A stretch of DNA of 64,000 nt from an uncultured Gemmatimonadaceae bacterium (GTDB lineage Bacteria; Gemmatimonadota; Gemmatimonadetes; Gemmatimonadales; Gemmatimonadaceae), in contig OY970320.1 in NCBI GenBank assembly GCA_963716745.1, positions 2,208,001-2,272,000 of the forward strand. The letters are read 5' to 3'. A program made the translations under genes and the position numbers. Positions 40,257-46,730 of the stretch are shown here, piece by piece (the stretch's first letter is position 1; each line of letters starts with the position of its first letter). The notes beneath the pieces were generated by a model. It ran no database searches. It had not been told where the DNA came from and worked only from the letters and a program-made list of their open reading frames with translations.

Positions 40257-41117
40257 TCACTTCGGCGGCGGCGGCCGCGTGGGCGCGCCGCGATCCACCT
40301 TGGTATAACCGGCCGGCACTTCGAACACGCTGGCGGGGATCGGCCCCTTCTTCACGTTCGAGATGAGCGTCGTCGTGGTGCTCGTGTGTGTCTTGCCACT
40401 CTGCGTGCTCACCGAAGTACTGACGCGTTTCATCATCACGCCGGGCTTCACGTTCGCATACGCCTTGATGATCGCGCTCGTGAGCGGCGCCATCGGGCCG
40501 GTCGCTTCCGCGATCTTTCCCACATCGGGCCGCGCCGACGGATTCATCAGTGCGTTCAGCGCGGGCGCGATCCAGATGTCGGAGGTGGTGTGCGTGGGCG
40601 TCTTCGTCTCATTGCCCATCATCGTGAGGTCCATGGTGTAGCTCTCGGTGAGGCGATACTTGAGGGTCGAGTAGCCCTCGATCTTCTCGCCGGCGCCGAG
40701 CGGCTCCATGCTCACATGCACGTCGGTGACTTTCATCGACACCATGCTCGGCGCGGCCTTCATCGCATTGCTCGCGTCCCGGGAGAGTTCAGCGAGGTCG
40801 AGCTGCATGTACTGTCGCTTCGAGGGGTCCACGAAAGTCACCGTGCGAGCGGCGCTATTCGAGATCATGAAGTTGCCGGCGCCCATCATGCTGGCCCGGT
40901 TCATCGATTCGGAGAAGTCGAGGCGCGACACGCCGCTGGCGAATTGCCCGTGCGCCCGCAGGAAGGTGACCGTGGTGTCCTTGCCGGTCGCGCGATCCGC
41001 GCGCGTGACGGTCGTGGTGAGGTCGTAGCTATAGCCCTGCGCCGCGAGCGGTAAGGCGAGCACGATCGCGAGCGCGATCGCGGCGCGGCGAGCGGGCGCG
41101 GAGCGTGAATTTCGCAT
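40257..41117 (-). CDS. DUF4412-like secreted protein
   Basis: Signal peptide; E.I.GY.T.KY, IWIAP, FEVPAGY. Confidence 0.7.
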   Translation of the reverse strand: MRNSRSAPARRAAIALAIVLALPLAAQGYSYDLTTTVTRADRATGKDTTVTFLRAHGQFASGVSRLDFSESMNRASMMGAGNFMISNSAARTVTFVDPSKRQYMQLDLAELSRDASNAMKAAPSMVSMKVTDVHVSMEPLGAGEKIEGYSTLKYRLTESYTMDLTMMGNETKTPTHTTSDIWIAPALNALMNPSARPDVGKIAEATGPMAPLTSAIIKAYANVKPGVMMKRVSTSVSTQSGKTHTSTTTTLISNVKKGPIPASVFEVPAGYTKVDRGAPTRPPPPK

Positions 41118-41161
41118 CGAGGTAACGTAGCGCCGGTCGCCGGCGGCCGCCATCTTACAGC

Positions 41162-41698
41162 ATGCGAGTCCAGGACCTGCTGCTCGAAGCGCTGCATGCG
41201 AAGCGCGAGAACCGGCTGGAGGACGCTCGCCGTGACCTGCGCGACGCCGCGGCGCAGCTGCGCGAGAAGAACGTGCCGAGCGAATTGGCCGACGTCCTGC
41301 GCGACCTCGGCGAATTGGAACGCCGCCTGCGGAACGCCGACGCGGCACGCGGGCACTATGAGGAGGCGGTCGCGATCCTGAGCGGCGTGGACGATCCGTT
41401 GCGGCTCGCGCACACCATGCGGCATCTGGGCGACGTGCACTACGAGGCGGAACGCACCACCGCCGCCGAACTGGCGTATCGCGAGTCTATCGTGCTGTAC
41501 CGGAACGCGGGCCGCACCAAGCCGCTCGATCTGGCGAACGCAATCCGGAGCATGGCGGTGTTGAAGAGCGACTTCGGGCCGGCCGAGGAAGCGCGCGCGC
41601 TGTGGCAGGAGGCGCTGGAACTGTACGCCGACGCCAACGTGCAACCTGGAGTGGCGGAGTGTACGGCGAGGCTTAAGGTGCTGAGTCTGCGGACCTAG
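41162..41698 (+). CDS. Tetratricopeptide repeat protein
   Basis: LA..L..LG......A...Y..A..I helical repeats. Confidence 0.85.
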   Translation: MRVQDLLLEALHAKRENRLEDARRDLRDAAAQLREKNVPSELADVLRDLGELERRLRNADAARGHYEEAVAILSGVDDPLRLAHTMRHLGDVHYEAERTTAAELAYRESIVLYRNAGRTKPLDLANAIRSMAVLKSDFGPAEEARALWQEALELYADANVQPGVAECTARLKVLSLRT

Positions 41699-42136
41699 GG
41701 CAGCGCCATCGACGCCTGTCCGAACACGTAGCTCCATCCGTTCGGAGTGCGAACGTACACATCGCTGAACCAGAGTTTCTTGTCGAACGCATTGCCTCCT
41801 GTAGTGCCTTTCTCCCAGAGCAGCGCGGTGACCACCGCGGTGTTCCCCCAGACGCGCACCTTCTGCAGCGTGTCCTCCTGATGCTCGTAGATCGTGCTCT
41901 TCTGGCGCGCGGCCTCGAGCAGCTCGGCACGTGTGAACACCGCGCCGCGCCCGGTGACGAGGATGAAATCATCGGCGAGGATCGCGGCCATGCCATCGGC
42001 GTCATTGGCCTTCACCGCGGCCTGGTACTTGGTGTCGAGCGACGGCGACCGTGGCGGCATCATCGGGCGCCGGCGGCGTTGCGCGGGTTAGGATGAGCAG
42101 ACCGAGTGCCAGTGGAAGGGTGAACAGGGGACGCAT
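41695..42136 (-). CDS. NTF2-like (DUF4440) secreted protein (frameshift near 42042)
   Basis: Signal peptide MRPLFTLPLALG in one frame; LD..YQ.AV..ND...ILADDF...GNTAVVT...FSDVYVR in another. Confidence 0.78.
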
Positions 42137-42213
42137 GCGACGCTCCATGGGAGTGGTCTGACCCAATCGTGCCGCCGCAAGGGTTGAGGTGTCAACCCGC
42201 GCGCCGCACCACG

Positions 42214-42242
42214 TTGACGGGCTGTCCCGGCGCATCTATGTT
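42214..42242 (+). promoter_or_regulatory. Putative sigma-70 promoter of the four-gene secreted operon
   Basis: TTGACG-N17-TATGTT, about 30 bp upstream of the ATG at 42272; GGAGG RBS at 42261. Confidence 0.55.
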
Positions 42243-42271
42243 CGCCGAGTCGGGAACTATGGAGGGTCGCG

Positions 42272-42940
42272 ATGCGATTCCATGGAGTAGCCGGCGTTGT
42301 TTTATTGGTGGCCGTGAATTCTCCGGCGGTTGTGGCACAAGCGAGCCCCAAGAACGGTGCGACGAGCGCGTCTCTCACGTTCGACGCCGTGCTCGCGAGC
42401 CCGGCGCGCGCGGCGCGGAATGCGTTCAAGGCCGGCGGCGTGGAGTGGTCGTGCACCACGACACACTGCACGGGGAAGGGTCCGGCCAACGATCCGAGCG
42501 GCACGTGCAAGGCGCTCGTCGGTATCGTGGGTCCGCTCTCGAGCTGCGGCGCGAAGATCCCGCAATCAATGGCGATGAGTTCGGTTGCCACGACGGTCCA
42601 GAAGCCCGCGGGCATGACGCCGAGCGTCACGCCGCAGCACGCCGTTCCGGCGGCGGTCGCCGCTGGCGCTCCGCCGGTGAAGACCGGCATCACACCGCCG
42701 GCAGCGCCCCCGCCGAAGAGCAGTGGCAGCACGCACCCGACGATCGCGATCACCACGCCGCAGTTCACCCTCACGGGCACCGGCGTCTACACGCCCGCGA
42801 CACACCCCGCGTTGGCGTGGACCGCGCCAATGATCACGCTCACGGGCACCGGTGCTCTCGATGCCTCGGCGACCCGCCCGCCCGCGAACATCGCGTTCAC
42901 GACTCAGCCGTTCACGATCACCGGCACCGGAAGCCCATAG
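42272..42940 (+). CDS. Secreted protein: Cys-rich N-terminal domain (CC_3452-like), P/A/T linker and 3 TTPxxTLTGTG repeats
   Basis: Signal peptide; GGVEWSC...HC...CKALVGIVGP; ITTPQFTLTGTG, WTAPMITLTGTG, FTTQPFTITGTG. Confidence 0.75.
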   Translation: MRFHGVAGVVLLVAVNSPAVVAQASPKNGATSASLTFDAVLASPARAARNAFKAGGVEWSCTTTHCTGKGPANDPSGTCKALVGIVGPLSSCGAKIPQSMAMSSVATTVQKPAGMTPSVTPQHAVPAAVAAGAPPVKTGITPPAAPPPKSSGSTHPTIAITTPQFTLTGTGVYTPATHPALAWTAPMITLTGTGALDASATRPPANIAFTTQPFTITGTGSP

Positions 42941-42969
42941 ATGAATCCCCGATCCTGGAGGGCTGTCCC

Positions 42970-43458
42970 ATGAGGATCCTCAGTGTTGCCGTGCTGCTCA
43001 CGGGTGCGACGATCGCCGCGTCTGCGCAAGCCGGCAGTTCGACTTCTGGACCGAGTGACTTCACGATCACGATTCCGCTCAAGGTGAAGGGGATCCCGTC
43101 GAACGTCACGCGGATGGGCATCAGCTGTTACGTGATGCCCGCCGACGTGAGTAACATGACGAACGAGATCGGCTACGGCGCCGCGACGGTGGTGGTGCAC
43201 CCGGCGACATCACCGCCTCCGGGCGGCTCGACCCAGGCGAGCGTCACGATCTCGTTCAACGCGCTGCCGGGAAAGGATCCGTCGCTCGCACGCTTCTACT
43301 CGTGCACAGCGCAATTCTCCGGGACCGAGCGCGGCGCGCCGGCGACCTATTTCGCGAACGGCGCAACAACACCGCCCGTGTTCCCGCTCTCGCCGGGCCA
43401 GCCGTTCTACCTTGGGAGCGCCACGTGGACGCCGATCCCCGGCACGAGTTCGCATTGA
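42970..43458 (+). CDS. Secreted two-Cys beta-rich protein (paralog of 43884-44282)
   Basis: GGAGG RBS; signal peptide; DFTITIP...CYV...EIGYG...A.FYSC. Confidence 0.75.
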   Translation: MRILSVAVLLTGATIAASAQAGSSTSGPSDFTITIPLKVKGIPSNVTRMGISCYVMPADVSNMTNEIGYGAATVVVHPATSPPPGGSTQASVTISFNALPGKDPSLARFYSCTAQFSGTERGAPATYFANGATTPPVFPLSPGQPFYLGSATWTPIPGTSSH

Positions 43459-43868
43459 TGAGGGCCTCCGCCGCGCTCGGCGCGCTCGCCCTCCTGATCG
43501 CGCCGCGTGCGCCCGCGCAGCAGCCGAAGGTCGCGGCGCCGATGAAACCCGCAGTCGCGTCGCCGGTGAAGACGATGGCGCCAGCGCCTACGACGATGAT
43601 GAAGGTGCCGGTCGCGCGCGTCATCACCACGCCGGCGATCACGTTCTTTGGCGCGGGGGCCGGCGGCCGGGCGATCACGACGCCGGCGATCACGTTCGCC
43701 GGGAATCCTTCCGGCGGAGTCGCGATAAACACGCCCGCGATCTCGTTCATCGGAGGCGTCGGGGGCAAAGGCATCATGACGCCCGCGATCACGTTCATCG
43801 GCGTACACACCGGCCCAACGACCATCACGACCGACCCGATCTCCTTCACCGGAAATCCTTCACACTAG
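43458..43868 (+). CDS. Secreted protein with five ITTPAITFxG repeats
   Basis: TGATG coupling to the upstream gene; signal peptide; repeats spaced 16-17 aa. Confidence 0.78.
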   Translation: MRASAALGALALLIAPRAPAQQPKVAAPMKPAVASPVKTMAPAPTTMMKVPVARVITTPAITFFGAGAGGRAITTPAITFAGNPSGGVAINTPAISFIGGVGGKGIMTPAITFIGVHTGPTTITTDPISFTGNPSH

Positions 43869-43883
43869 CGGCGGAACCCCACC

Positions 43884-44282
43884 ATGAAAACCCTGCTCGT
43901 CGTTCCCGCGCTGCTGCTCGCGCACCACGCCTTCTTCGCCGACTTCACCTTCAATGTGCCGGTGAATCTGCAGGACTACCAGCAGCCGTCCACATACGTC
44001 GGCTCGTCGCAGTCCATCTACTGCGTGGTGCTCACGGGAACCACGGAGCTAGGCACCGGACGCACGCCGATCTCGATCCCGGCGAGCGGGAACTTCAACG
44101 CCACGGTGAGCGTGGCGGTCACGATGCGCTCAGGACACGCGCCGGGCGAGGCGACGGATTACCGCTGCTACTTCACGGTGGCCGACGGCGTGACCGCCGC
44201 CAGCGCGGTCTCAAGCGGGCAGCTGCACCCGCGCTCGGGAACGACGCCGGTGCTCCTCGTGAGCGGGCACATCACGCATTAG
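43884..44282 (+). CDS. Secreted two-Cys beta-rich protein (paralog of 42970-43458)
   Basis: Signal peptide; DFTFNVP...CVV...ELGTG...A.DYRC. Confidence 0.78.
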   Translation: MKTLLVVPALLLAHHAFFADFTFNVPVNLQDYQQPSTYVGSSQSIYCVVLTGTTELGTGRTPISIPASGNFNATVSVAVTMRSGHAPGEATDYRCYFTVADGVTAASAVSSGQLHPRSGTTPVLLVSGHITH

Positions 44283-46730
44283 TAGATCGCGTCCTCGTCC
44301 TCGCCGAAGGGATCGCCCGGCGGCGCGCGCAGCGCCGGCGTGAATGACGGGAGGGTGCCCTCCTCCTGATAGTGCGCGATGTCGCTCGCGATGAGCGACC
44401 AGAAAGCGCGGTCCTCCACGCTGCCCGTGGCGGACCGCGTTTTCGCCATGGTCTTCCACGCGCCCAGCTTGTACGCCGCGATCGCGCGCACCTGACCGAG
44501 CGCGGTGGAATCGGCCGCGAGCAGCATCACGCGGTCCACCAGCGCTCGGCGCGAGACCTTGAGCAGCGCCTCGCTCTTGGGGTCGGTGCCACTCTTCGTG
44601 AGCGTCGCCGCGGCGAGCGCGTCGATGGTCTCGCTCAGCGTGAGCGGATTGGTCTGGTGCGGCGCGAACTCCACCAAGCGCGCCGCGCGGTCCTTCTGCA
44701 GCACGTTGTCGATGATCATCTGCGCGAGCGTGCGCGCGGCGCCGAACTCGTCGAACGCCGGCCGCGTGCGGCTCGCGAAGCTCTCCACACCGCCGCCGTA
44801 GCCCGGCGGGGCTGGGGCGAGCAGCCGCAGAATGGTGTCGGGGATCGCGAGCTCACTCGGTGACAGGGCGCCCACCAGCATCTTGAGCGCCGCGCGTTGC
44901 CGCGTGGGATCGATGAGCCGCGTCGCGTTCTCGCCGTCGCCACGCACGGCGAATGAATATTCCATGCCGCCGAGCGTACGCGCGGTGGCGCTGATGCCGA
45001 AGCGATGGAAGAGATAGAGCGGCACGAACCGGTCGTGCAGCAGCGCCACCGCTTCGCCCTCGCGAATGTTGCGGAGCCCGAACTCCTTCATCGCCACGCG
45101 CCGCACATCCATCTGGCGCTGAAGGAAGAGCGTGGCCGTCGCGGCGTCGTCCCAGAGATTCGTGCGCGGGTCGGAGCTGAAATCCGGGCGCGCATCCTGG
45201 TCGGTAAGGTACAGGTATCCCTTCTTCAATCCCTCGGTCATGATCGCCTTGAGCGAGTCCGCTTCGCTCGCCGCGGGGAAAATGCCGTAGCCCCACCGGA
45301 TGGCCCACACATCGTAATCTCCCGGGCCCATCGCGTACGCCTGGCTTACATCCACGGCGCCCTTCGCGTCGAGCATGATGCGCGGCGCTGGATAATCCAT
45401 GACGGATCCGCGCTCGTACGTGCTCGCGATGTAATTGTGCGCCATCCCCAGCGTGTGCCCGATCTCGTGCGCCGTGACCTGGCGCACGCGGCCGAGCACG
45501 AAGTGCGTATCCGCCGGCGATGGATCGGCTCCCATAAGCGCAGCGTAGAGATTGTACGCGGTGCGATTCCGGTGCGAATCCATGTGCGCGACGCCCTTGA
45601 GATTCTCGCCGGTGCGCGGATCGCCGAGCGATCCGCCGAAGCTCCAGCCGCGCTCGTTGCGATTGATCCAGAGCACCATGTTGTAGCGCACATCCATGGG
45701 ATCGGCGCCGGCGGGAAGATCTCTCACGACGAAGCCGCCCTTGAGCCCCGCACGGTCGAACGCCTCGCTCCAGAACTTCGCGCCCGTGACCGACGCCGAG
45801 TGCATCGGCTCCGGGATCGCGGGGTCGATGTAGTAGACGATCGGATTCTTGATCGGGCTGTTCGGATCGTTCGGGTTCGTGCGCTCGAGGCGGAAGCGCG
45901 AGATCCAGTGCACGTCGAGCCGGCCCTGCACGGGCTGGCCGAAGTCCTTGAAATCCACGCCGAAGAATCCGATGCGCGGGTCGGCGACGCGAGGGCGGTA
46001 CTCATCGTTCGGCAGACGCACGAGGCTGTAGTGCACGCGCAGCGTGAACGCGCGCCCGTCGGCCGCGACCTGGCTCACGGTGTTACCCGGCGTGCCGTTC
46101 GCGACGAACGTCTGCGCGATGTCGATCTCGGTGTTGTCGGGAAATGCCTTCGTGAACGGTGTGTACACGCTCGAGCGGTCCTTCGACAGCGAGTAATTCC
46201 CCTCGTGCTCGCTCTGCAGCCGCTCGCCAACCGAGAGCCAGTCGCGCACGAACAGATCAGTTGCATCCACGAGGATCCGCCCGTTCTCGCTCGCGAGTAC
46301 CGGCATGCTCGCCATGGTGCTCGGCGGGAACGATTCCATCACCGACTCGCCATTGGGCGAATTCGCGCCGAGCGAGCTGCGGTATTTCCAATTCTCGACG
46401 ACGAGCAGCAGGCGATCGCCGGTGCGCTGCACGTGCACGACGCGGTCGTCGTCTGCCGCGCCGCGATCGAAGCCAAGCGGATTGGAGCCAAGCCCAGTGG
46501 CTTCCTGTGCGAAGAGGAGGAAACGCATCGAGTCGCGCGGCAGCTCGAGCAGGATCTTCCCGTTCTTCTCGTCGAGGTAGAGGGGAATGAAGCCGTCGCG
46601 CTTCTCCATGCCGCTGGTCTTGGACGCGATCGTGGCAGGGCCGGACGAAGCGGGCTGTTGTTGTGTGGCGGCAGGAAGCCGCGAGGGAGAGAGCGGCGAG
46701 AACGGAGAGCGCGCGCGAGAATTTCAGCAT
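44279..46730 (-). CDS. Zinc-dependent metalloprotease (DUF5117/DUF4953, EcxA-like); frameshift near 46670
   Basis: HEIGHTLGMAHN, SVMDYP Met-turn, PR.AD.RIGFF, PIVYYID; signal peptide MLKFSRALS lies in another frame. Confidence 0.88.

Follow-up and report, generated by a model that had tools for sequence, protein, structure and literature searches.

A conserved gene pair for secreted C-terminal repeat proteins and Ig-like partners in Gemmatimonadaceae and other bacteria, with a tentative role in docking

What do four small proteins do that are encoded in a row, two of them ending in short strand-like repeats and two of them resembling immunoglobulin (Ig) domains? This question is raised by a stretch of 64,000 nucleotides (nt) from an uncultured Gemmatimonadaceae bacterium (contig OY970320.1, positions 2,208,001 to 2,272,000; hereafter the window), which contains the four-gene cassette A1-B1-A2-B2. 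A first-pass annotation of the sequence had read the cassette as two pairs, each of a repeat protein (A) and a two-Cys beta-sandwich protein (B), and had proposed a new fibre or scaffold system. We find that A followed by B is a conserved, self-contained two-gene secreted module present in several bacterial phyla, of which the window holds two divergent copies. Regarding its role we tentatively favour docking, i.e. that the A repeats serve as tags that are bound by the cognate B protein in the cell envelope. We assign this reading a probability of roughly 0.4.

The pairing was traced with two profile hidden Markov models (HMMs). The B profile for the genome search was made from ten B proteins, and the repeat HMM was built from 32 units of nine loci, all outside the window's genus. 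In the genome of the window the B profile returned B1 (E 1.9e-52) and B2 (E 7.7e-46) and no others. Among the 28,855 six-frame open reading frames (ORFs) of this genome the repeat HMM ranked A2 first (E 1.2e-4, five domains) and A1 second (E 8e-3, three domains), in agreement with the five and three repeats counted in the first-pass annotation, and the third-ranked ORF was found at E = 1. Each of the two HMMs thus picks out just two ORFs of the genome, with A and B alternating.

The loci compared with the window came from its own genus (genomes G002, G003 and G005), from two other genera of its family (G300 and G241) and, by pattern scans from a 13-row B alignment, from six loci of metagenome-assembled genomes (MAGs; Sedimenticolaceae, Acidobacteriota, two "Deltaproteobacteria", a Pseudomonadota MAG and Thiohalospira) and from 25 metagenome contigs. 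A scripted tally over the window and 37 loci contained 46 B-domain genes. An ORF ending in the repeat motif was flagged directly upstream on the same strand for 36 of them; one flag (L034) was spurious by eye, which leaves 35/46, with the number of independent pairs being lower because five loci are near-duplicates (L024, L029, L040, L042, L047). The remaining ten B genes comprise four with too little upstream DNA (the first B of L026, L029, L030, L041), three that stand as second B behind another B (L028, L034, L044), two with an A3-type gene that the motif missed, its last repeat having no final Gly (L013, L004), and one (L042, near-identical to L034) whose A-like ORF instead lies 3' of a tandem of B genes. 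The A-like ORF of L034 (L034:3675-5156), likewise 3' of two B genes, matches the repeat HMM with E 1.4e-5. The order A-then-B is strict, and the genes are separated by 1-30 nt or overlap; in the window the gaps are 29 nt (A1-B1) and 15 nt (A2-B2). The co-occurrence of the two families, which had been put forward as a check on the original proposal, is thereby established: A and B are adjacent in many other genomes.

Within the phylum the module is patchily distributed. The B profile matched 3 of 301 sampled genomes (G000, G300, G241), and in both G300 and G241 the gene immediately 5' of B has such repeats at its end. In the same 301 genomes the A profile matched strongly in two, both B-positive, and two further weak matches had neither repeats nor a B gene. 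Two of five genomes of the same genus (G003, G005) carry the full A1-B1-A2-B2 cassette, their B1 proteins being 57% and 43% identical to that of the window. In G005 the DUF4440 and zincin genes border the cassette as they do in the window, whereas the neighbours in G003 differ. In G001 (89% complete) and G004 (76% complete) no match was found with the query used. A third pair, A3-B3, occurs at a separate locus in G005 (L013:2945-3789) and G002 (L004:428-1273) and was not found in the window genome with the B profile. The A3 frame of G002 appears broken, with signal peptide, linker and repeats in different frames, as in a pseudogene or from an error in the MAG assembly. In an unrelated metagenome contig a diverged A'-B' pair with LLIDAGTLRYVGG-type repeats (L048:63-2717; L047 is near-identical) lies directly upstream of an A-B pair of the CC_3452 type described below, a four-gene layout that matches that of the window.

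Several loci carry mobile-type genes within ~2 kb of the pair, namely a resolvase (L020, L021, L033), a phage-type integrase (L032) and an IS110 transposase (L033); in L046 a PIN gene is found at such a distance. The recombinase and transposase neighbours together with the patchy distribution (B in 3/301 phylum genomes) hint at lateral spread of the module. A signature of horizontal transfer in the window itself was considered and rejected, as the cassette, at 0.67-0.68, does not deviate in GC content from the genome (0.669; a single contig of 3.29 Mb).

A and B also vary together. A quick maximum-likelihood tree was made for 41 B domains, five near-duplicate rows having been dropped, and in it the B proteins encoded beside CC_3452-type A proteins fell into two neighbouring clades. 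The A-type labels were taken from matches to the NCBIfam model NF047636, those of L037 and L025_2 being assumed from the repeat type, and two unlabelled rows in the CC_3452 clades (L026, L041) are without upstream DNA. On this tree the label of the CC_3452 neighbour changes three times, compared to a mean of 11.4 for shuffled labels with 0 of 500 shuffles as low, which, since related rows share labels, demonstrates clustering and not strict co-evolution. B1 groups with the CC_3452-linked set while B2 is located on a different major branch. The two pairs of the window are therefore old paralogous pair types and not the product of a recent tandem duplication. A direct BLASTP comparison of B1 and B2 gave 26% identity over 88 residues (E 4e-5); the paralogy suggested in the first-pass annotation thus holds, and all of the common motifs that it listed are present.

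The B family is far larger than a single genus. An exhaustive profile search of 1.84 billion representative proteins yielded 1189 matches at E<=1e-3 and 315 at E<=1e-10, nearly all of 125-180 residues; this overturned the earlier picture of a genus-only family, obtained with a word-based search using B1 alone that had returned two matches. The consensus comprises a signal peptide, the motif [DE]-F-T-F-x-V-P-V, a first Cys and the motif G-x-Y-x-G-x-V-x-V-x-F-N-A-x-x-G-x-D-P-x-x-A-x-x-Y-x-C. Conserved columns are F, V, P, C, Y, C and the start M, and no catalytic motif is found among the conserved residues. At E<=0.01, Pfam matched 0 of 55 sampled members of the family and NCBIfam 0 of 16, the sole NCBIfam trace for B homologues being a non-significant match to FimG (E 0.095; 12.4 bits for a cut-off of 220). 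Pfam likewise assigned no family to A1, B1 and A2 (A1 and A2 at E<=1) and gave one sub-threshold match for B2 (12.6 bits for a cut-off of 27), in accordance with the earlier statement that no enzyme is recognisable in the cassette. The closest named homologue of B1, 59% identical, comes from a Gemmatimonadaceae MAG and is annotated as "hypothetical protein", the name carried by every B homologue whose source name was seen. Neighbours of B in the ESM Atlas are unnamed clusters of "hypothetical protein" entries with no common Pfam family and are commonest in Pseudomonadota. Among 8000 scored candidates of 316-2000 residues no fused or longer form of B was found at E<=1e-3, which is weak evidence for their absence. 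In the representative search a single match (P0011, 311 residues) was a polypeptide with two B domains. Behind each domain comes a short segment that by eye resembles an A repeat; these segments do not score with the repeat HMM.

Structure prediction suggests that B is a generic beta-sandwich of the Ig/fibronectin type III (FnIII) kind, with ~120 residues and one conserved Cys pair, which supports the earlier description of B as a two-Cys beta-sandwich. The Cys pair, and with it the putative disulfide, was read from the sequence. An AlphaFold2 model of B1 based on a 142-row alignment reached a predicted local distance difference test (pLDDT) value of 84.7 and a predicted template modelling (pTM) score of 0.74. 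It shows six long strands and an ordered C-terminal segment and has the two-sheet sandwich of ~100 residues used to define the fold class. An earlier model from 10 sequences had a pLDDT of 68.2, and its fold search was uninformative. With the better model, Foldseek returned a best E of 3e-3 and template modelling (TM) scores of <=0.40. VIA-align found 42 chains with Z>=5, mostly Ig/FnIII-like, the best being the FnIII domain of IL-17RB (7uwl_E; Z 7.4, root-mean-square deviation 3.4 Å over 92 residues). Ig-like domains of GH2 glycosidases followed with Z 6.0-6.6 (7nit_A, 6.6, 2.6 Å over 88 residues; 6hpd_A, 6.5, 2.8 Å over 86 residues), and a porphyran-binding carbohydrate-binding module (CBM) appeared at low score. 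Z values below 8 are in the range that the tool gives for unrelated sandwiches, such that with Z <8 and TM <=0.40 no common function can be drawn from these matches. A search of PDB sequences with the B profile gave nothing significant (best E 0.19); the sub-threshold matches were nanobody and antibody heavy-chain variable (VH) domains (E 0.19-0.53), which fit a B-F-type Cys pair after Y-x-C. We thus found no specific solved relative of B by sequence or fold search, and the Foldseek comparison called for in the first-pass annotation pointed to no characterised family beyond the generic fold.

The A proteins are held together by their repeats. Between A1 and A2 BLASTP found no significant similarity (best E 0.29), and the repeat region, with the motif h-T-T-P-x-h-T-h-x-G (h, hydrophobic), is their only relation. 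The three repeats of A1 (AITTPQFTLTG, AWTAPMITLTG, AFTTQPFTITG) are spaced by 69 and 78 nt in the DNA and the five of A2 by 48-51 nt. Tandem Repeats Finder detected no DNA-level array in the cassette, and the repeats of A1 and A2 are therefore old and diverged. In other phyla the unit extends to F-x-P-V-x-[IV]-x-T-x-x-L-T-[IV]-T-G. Units are 16-26 residues long, with hydrophobic residues and Thr in alternation and Gly at the end. In every A protein examined they close the chain, no more than ~8 residues separating the last Gly from the C-terminal end. Their number varies from one (L047/L048) and two (L018, L023) over three in most loci and five to six in A2 types up to seven (L019). The repeats are preceded by a Pro/Ala-rich linker and this in turn by nothing, by a Cys-rich CC_3452-type domain, by a CARDB domain (L018; 23.7 bits for a cut-off of 22.7) or by an unassigned domain. 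A search of PDB sequences with A gave nothing significant.

Two unusual A architectures were noted. L028:3-2541 encodes a 5'-truncated A-like protein of at least 516 residues with two kinds of repeats, three of each, followed by two tandem B genes. L015:395-1495 (-) and L016:2016-3110 (-), from two other genera of the window's family, have in common an unassigned N-terminal domain that is rich in beta-strands and holds a conserved pair of Cys residues; in G241 this domain forms the N-terminal part of the A protein, and in G300 it is a separate gene 3' of B and continues into a Gly/Ala-rich tail.

Only the N-terminal domain of A1 has a counterpart in the family libraries. Its residues 25-91 align to NF047636, the CC_3452 family, with 30.4 bits, and in the six-frame search A1 scored 33.4 bits, both below the cut-off of 40. 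The A1 orthologues of G003 and G005 reach 40.9 and 41.5 bits. In all, A1-type proteins of ten other loci match, nine with 40.9-62.7 bits and one (L045) with 39.8, the more distant ones at 48.9-62.7 bits. The model is named after Caulobacter CC_3452/CCNA_03566 and, among 14 control genomes, also matches Caulobacter vibrioides. Its 92 positions cover the N-domain alone, with the C-terminal repeats and the B partner lying outside, and A2-type proteins are without this domain. For CC_3452 the sole functional note found is a table entry that reports a 2.5-fold rise under iron limitation (PMC3751524). As judged from these matches, the N-domain of A1 is the one catalogued part of the module and appears to belong to an uncharacterised family. 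With this exception the module appears to be undescribed, such that the earlier view of it as new is largely borne out: it stands for B and for the repeat, which go unnamed in the libraries and solved structures searched and for which no description was found in open-access full texts, and does not stand for the N-domain of A1.

How could A and B work together? A C-terminal strand tag of variable copy number, a variable N-terminal end and an adjacent B protein that diverges in step fit docking better than a self-stacking fibre. Both proteins would be exported by the Sec pathway to the cell envelope, where each A repeat would act as a docking tag for a cognate B domain, probably by pairing of edge strands. 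A2, with five repeats and no other domain, could string several B2 molecules together, while A1 would tether its CC_3452-like domain to B1. Candidates for the resulting assemblies are an envelope scaffold, an adhesion layer or others. Such an arrangement would resemble that of cohesin and dockerin, in which a duplicated C-terminal tag on varied proteins is received by a beta-sandwich and the dockerin consists of Ca-binding helices. Common to both are a short, repeated C-terminal tag, varied N-domains and a dedicated beta-sandwich of ~120-150 residues encoded nearby. In contrast to dockerins the A repeats look like beta-strands, binding is here weakly predicted by modelling, and the carriers live in soil and sediment and belong for the most part to Gram-negative phyla. 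Pfam matched neither a Dockerin_1 pair nor Cohesin, and the resemblance is one of architecture alone. A covalent ester or isopeptide linkage of the tag/catcher kind is not indicated either: B has no conserved Gln, Lys or His, and the fold matches of B1 to 8f9l and 5u6f are weak (TM <=0.38, Z 5.3-5.4).

An A-B complex was modelled by co-folding residues 20-132 of B2 with the repeat region of A2 (residues 47-136) in three runs and with three controls. The score was 0.55 (runs 0.55, 0.60 and 0.52) compared to 0.02 for the best control, which the tool rates as "weak support". When the tool was calibrated, 116 of 157 solved complexes reached the mark, compared to 2 of 215 mismatched pairs; at scores of <=0.60, just 18 of the 157 solved complexes reached it, plus both mismatches. 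The interaction anticipated in the first-pass annotation is hence predicted above control, in a weak band and with no interface reported.

A number of observations weigh against docking. The co-folding pass lies in this weak band, and A2 was modelled poorly (pLDDT 42-47). Contact agreement between the runs was at least 0%, meaning that the contacts may differ from run to run, and the output named no interface. Adjacency and co-divergence reveal a functional link and not physical binding, and the shuffling statistic overstates the extent to which B follows A. In its model, with six long strands and the ordered C-terminal segment, B seems to have no obviously missing strand. Signal peptides and the disulfide of B are predictions from sequence. 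The idea that the repeats are copies of the last strand of B (GTTPVLLVSG in B2, ITTPAITFAG in A) was rejected: at >=4 bits the repeat HMM matched 0 of 161 B-family proteins, compared to 1 of 805 shuffled and 1 of 161 reversed sequences. In its most extended form, docking would make the module an undescribed and widespread system, mostly of Gram-negative phyla, in which a portable C-terminal strand tag (F-x-P-V-x-I-x-T-x-x-L-T-I-T-G, one to seven copies) and a co-evolving Ig-like receptor encoded next door assemble envelope proteins with different N-domains into multivalent complexes, as a beta-strand counterpart of cohesin-dockerin. We regard this full statement as rather doubtful.

Among the alternatives, a fibre similar to curli or Fap was one of two roles offered in the first-pass annotation. 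The A repeats would then be strand-turn-strand rungs of a cross-beta or beta-solenoid stack, with B as a periplasmic chaperone or nucleator resembling CsgC/CsgH. In curli the repeat subunits CsgA and CsgB are accompanied by the Ig-like CsgC/CsgH, and the module is like curli in that a small secreted Ig-like protein is encoded alongside a secreted protein built of a few imperfect repeats that form strands. Units of 16-26 residues with hydrophobic/Thr alternation and a terminal Gly, present 2-7 times per protein, would suit a stack, as would A2 consisting of linker and repeats and nothing else, and B is small, secreted and Ig-like as is CsgC. However, there is no sequence match to a curli family, the repeat motif is another one, and many A proteins have unrelated N-domains. 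Curlin-type repeats are absent from A1 and A2 (Pfam at E<=1, 0 families), and genes of the CsgG/E/F export type are absent from the window flanks and from 86 flanking ORFs of 17 loci (E<=1e-5), as are CsgC, Fap and other channel families. FapC-type repeats and a FapF channel were not found by Pfam in the four proteins and flanks. B is Ig-like and matches no Pfam family, and CsgC is not among the fold matches listed, which says little against a chaperone of this type. More generally, neither the cassette proteins nor the flanks of the window matched a curli, Fap, usher, chaperone, sortase or secretin family in Pfam. The matches among the 86 flanking ORFs were heterogeneous (MYG1, GspH, aminotransferase, GH57, acetoacetate decarboxylase, hexapeptide transferase, ZnuA, ABC ATPase, PAS/GAF, YceI, LRR and DUF5916), and none recurs beyond close relatives. 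Some A proteins carry a single repeat or two, many have folded N-domains and long linkers, and the repeat region of A2 was modelled with no confident fold (pLDDT 42-47), which is weak evidence against a fibre because its alignment had 13 rows. We consider a fibre unlikely. Of the two roles first proposed for the repeats, the scaffold is weakly supported by the co-folding and agrees best with the one to seven strictly C-terminal repeats and the variable N-domains, and the fibre is not supported. Polymerisation by donor-strand complementation, as in chaperone-usher or type V pili, with B as a pilin-like incomplete Ig fold that an A repeat completes, is hardly credible. B is Ig-like, and each A repeat consists of one amphipathic strand and a subsequent Gly. 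But no usher, PapD-like chaperone or fimbrial-subunit family occurs in the four proteins or flanks, the non-significant FimG match being the sole trace, and no pilin is among the 50 listed VIA-align matches of B1, which says little either way. Moreover, B appears monomeric in design and has no N- or C-terminal extension to donate.

A and B might also be co-regulated parts of one envelope process, for instance by coating or binding the same polymer or surface, and never touch. Conserved adjacency by itself is no proof of contact, and the co-folding score lies in a range in which a pass is wrong more often than not, except where binding is already likely. Thr-rich flat strands and Ig-like domains occur in surface and glycan binders, and the low-score fold matches to GH2 Ig-like domains and to the porphyran-binding CBM would be compatible with such a task. 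Less easily explained in this way are the strict A-then-B order with its short gaps or overlaps, the tracking of A subtype by B subtype and the co-folding controls at <=0.02, so that we judge an association with no contact to be improbable. The near-identical repeats within a protein, the Gly/Pro-rich spacers and the A2-type proteins with no other domain could in addition suggest a multi-copy precursor that is cleaved between repeats into short signal or antimicrobial peptides, B being a carrier, immunity protein or processing helper. Yet no peptidase, maturase or transporter is conserved beside the pair, the Met-zincin next to the cassette being kept in G005 and not in G003. One-repeat proteins with large N-domains do not fit a precursor, and the conserved residues of B form no catalytic motif. 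A peptide precursor is accordingly very unlikely.

The features of the cassette and its surroundings are collected in Table 1. The four co-oriented genes are flanked by a DUF4440/SnoaL-like gene that diverges from A1 and by a Met-zincin gene that converges on B2, and the TGATG at 43456-43460, where the B1 stop overlaps the A2 start, is as initially described. The TTGACG-N17-TATGTT motif was found to be the sole sigma-70-like site in 41900-44600, compared to a mean of 0.2 (standard deviation 0.5) in shuffled sequence, and no terminator-like hairpin was found. By eye, all four N-termini have the basic start, hydrophobic core and small-x-small end of Sec/signal peptidase I substrates. All four products thus look like Sec-exported proteins, as had been proposed. 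The stop codons of the Met-zincin gene and B2 overlap by a few bases. The Met-zincin gene adjoins the cassette in G005 (L003) as well and does not do so in G003 (L002).

Table 1. Features of the A1-B1-A2-B2 cassette and neighbouring genes (window coordinates; h, hydrophobic; aa, amino acids)
Feature	Position	Strand	Description
Promoter-like site TTGACG-N17-TATGTT	42214-42242	+	30 nt 5' of A1 start; consensus match
A1, 222 aa	42272-42940	+	Predicted signal peptide ~residues 1-24, Cys-rich CC_3452-like N-domain residues 25-91, Pro/Ala-rich linker, 3 C-terminal repeats
A1 repeat region	42729-42930	+	3 copies of x-T-T/A-P/Q-x-h-T-h-T-G-T-G
B1, 162 aa	42970-43458	+	Predicted signal peptide, then predicted Ig-like beta-sandwich; conserved Cys53 and Cys112
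A2, 136 aa	43458-43868	+	Predicted signal peptide, Pro/Ala-rich linker, 5 C-terminal repeats
A2 repeat region	43622-43861	+	5 copies of h-T/N-T-P-A-I-T/S-F-x-G, 16-17 aa apart
B2, 132 aa	43884-44282	+	Signal peptide with predicted cut directly before DFTFNVPV, then predicted Ig-like two-Cys domain
DUF4440/SnoaL-like gene	41695-42063	-	Divergent from A1; present in G005 too
TPR protein gene	41162-41698	+	Further 5' of cassette
DUF4412 protein gene	40257-41348	-	Further 5' of cassette
Met-zincin gene, 776 aa	44279-46609	-	DUF5117 (E 1.6e-32) and DUF4953 (E 1.1e-57); converges on B2

The module is represented in over a thousand protein clusters, in soil and sediment bacteria, and is annotated as "hypothetical" in the names seen. 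If docking is true, two unannotated families would receive a name, and the C-terminal part of the CC_3452 family would be explained. Binding of A by B would then constitute a new, compact docking principle with a tag of ~12-20 residues and a receptor of ~120 residues. The ancient divergence of the B1 and B2 types would make orthogonal tag/receptor pairs available. Even if A and B do not bind each other, their strict gene pairing would mark an envelope function still to be described. As seen from the sequences, A and B are a firm and broadly conserved gene pair, and the mechanism proposed for them can be tested and may prove useful.

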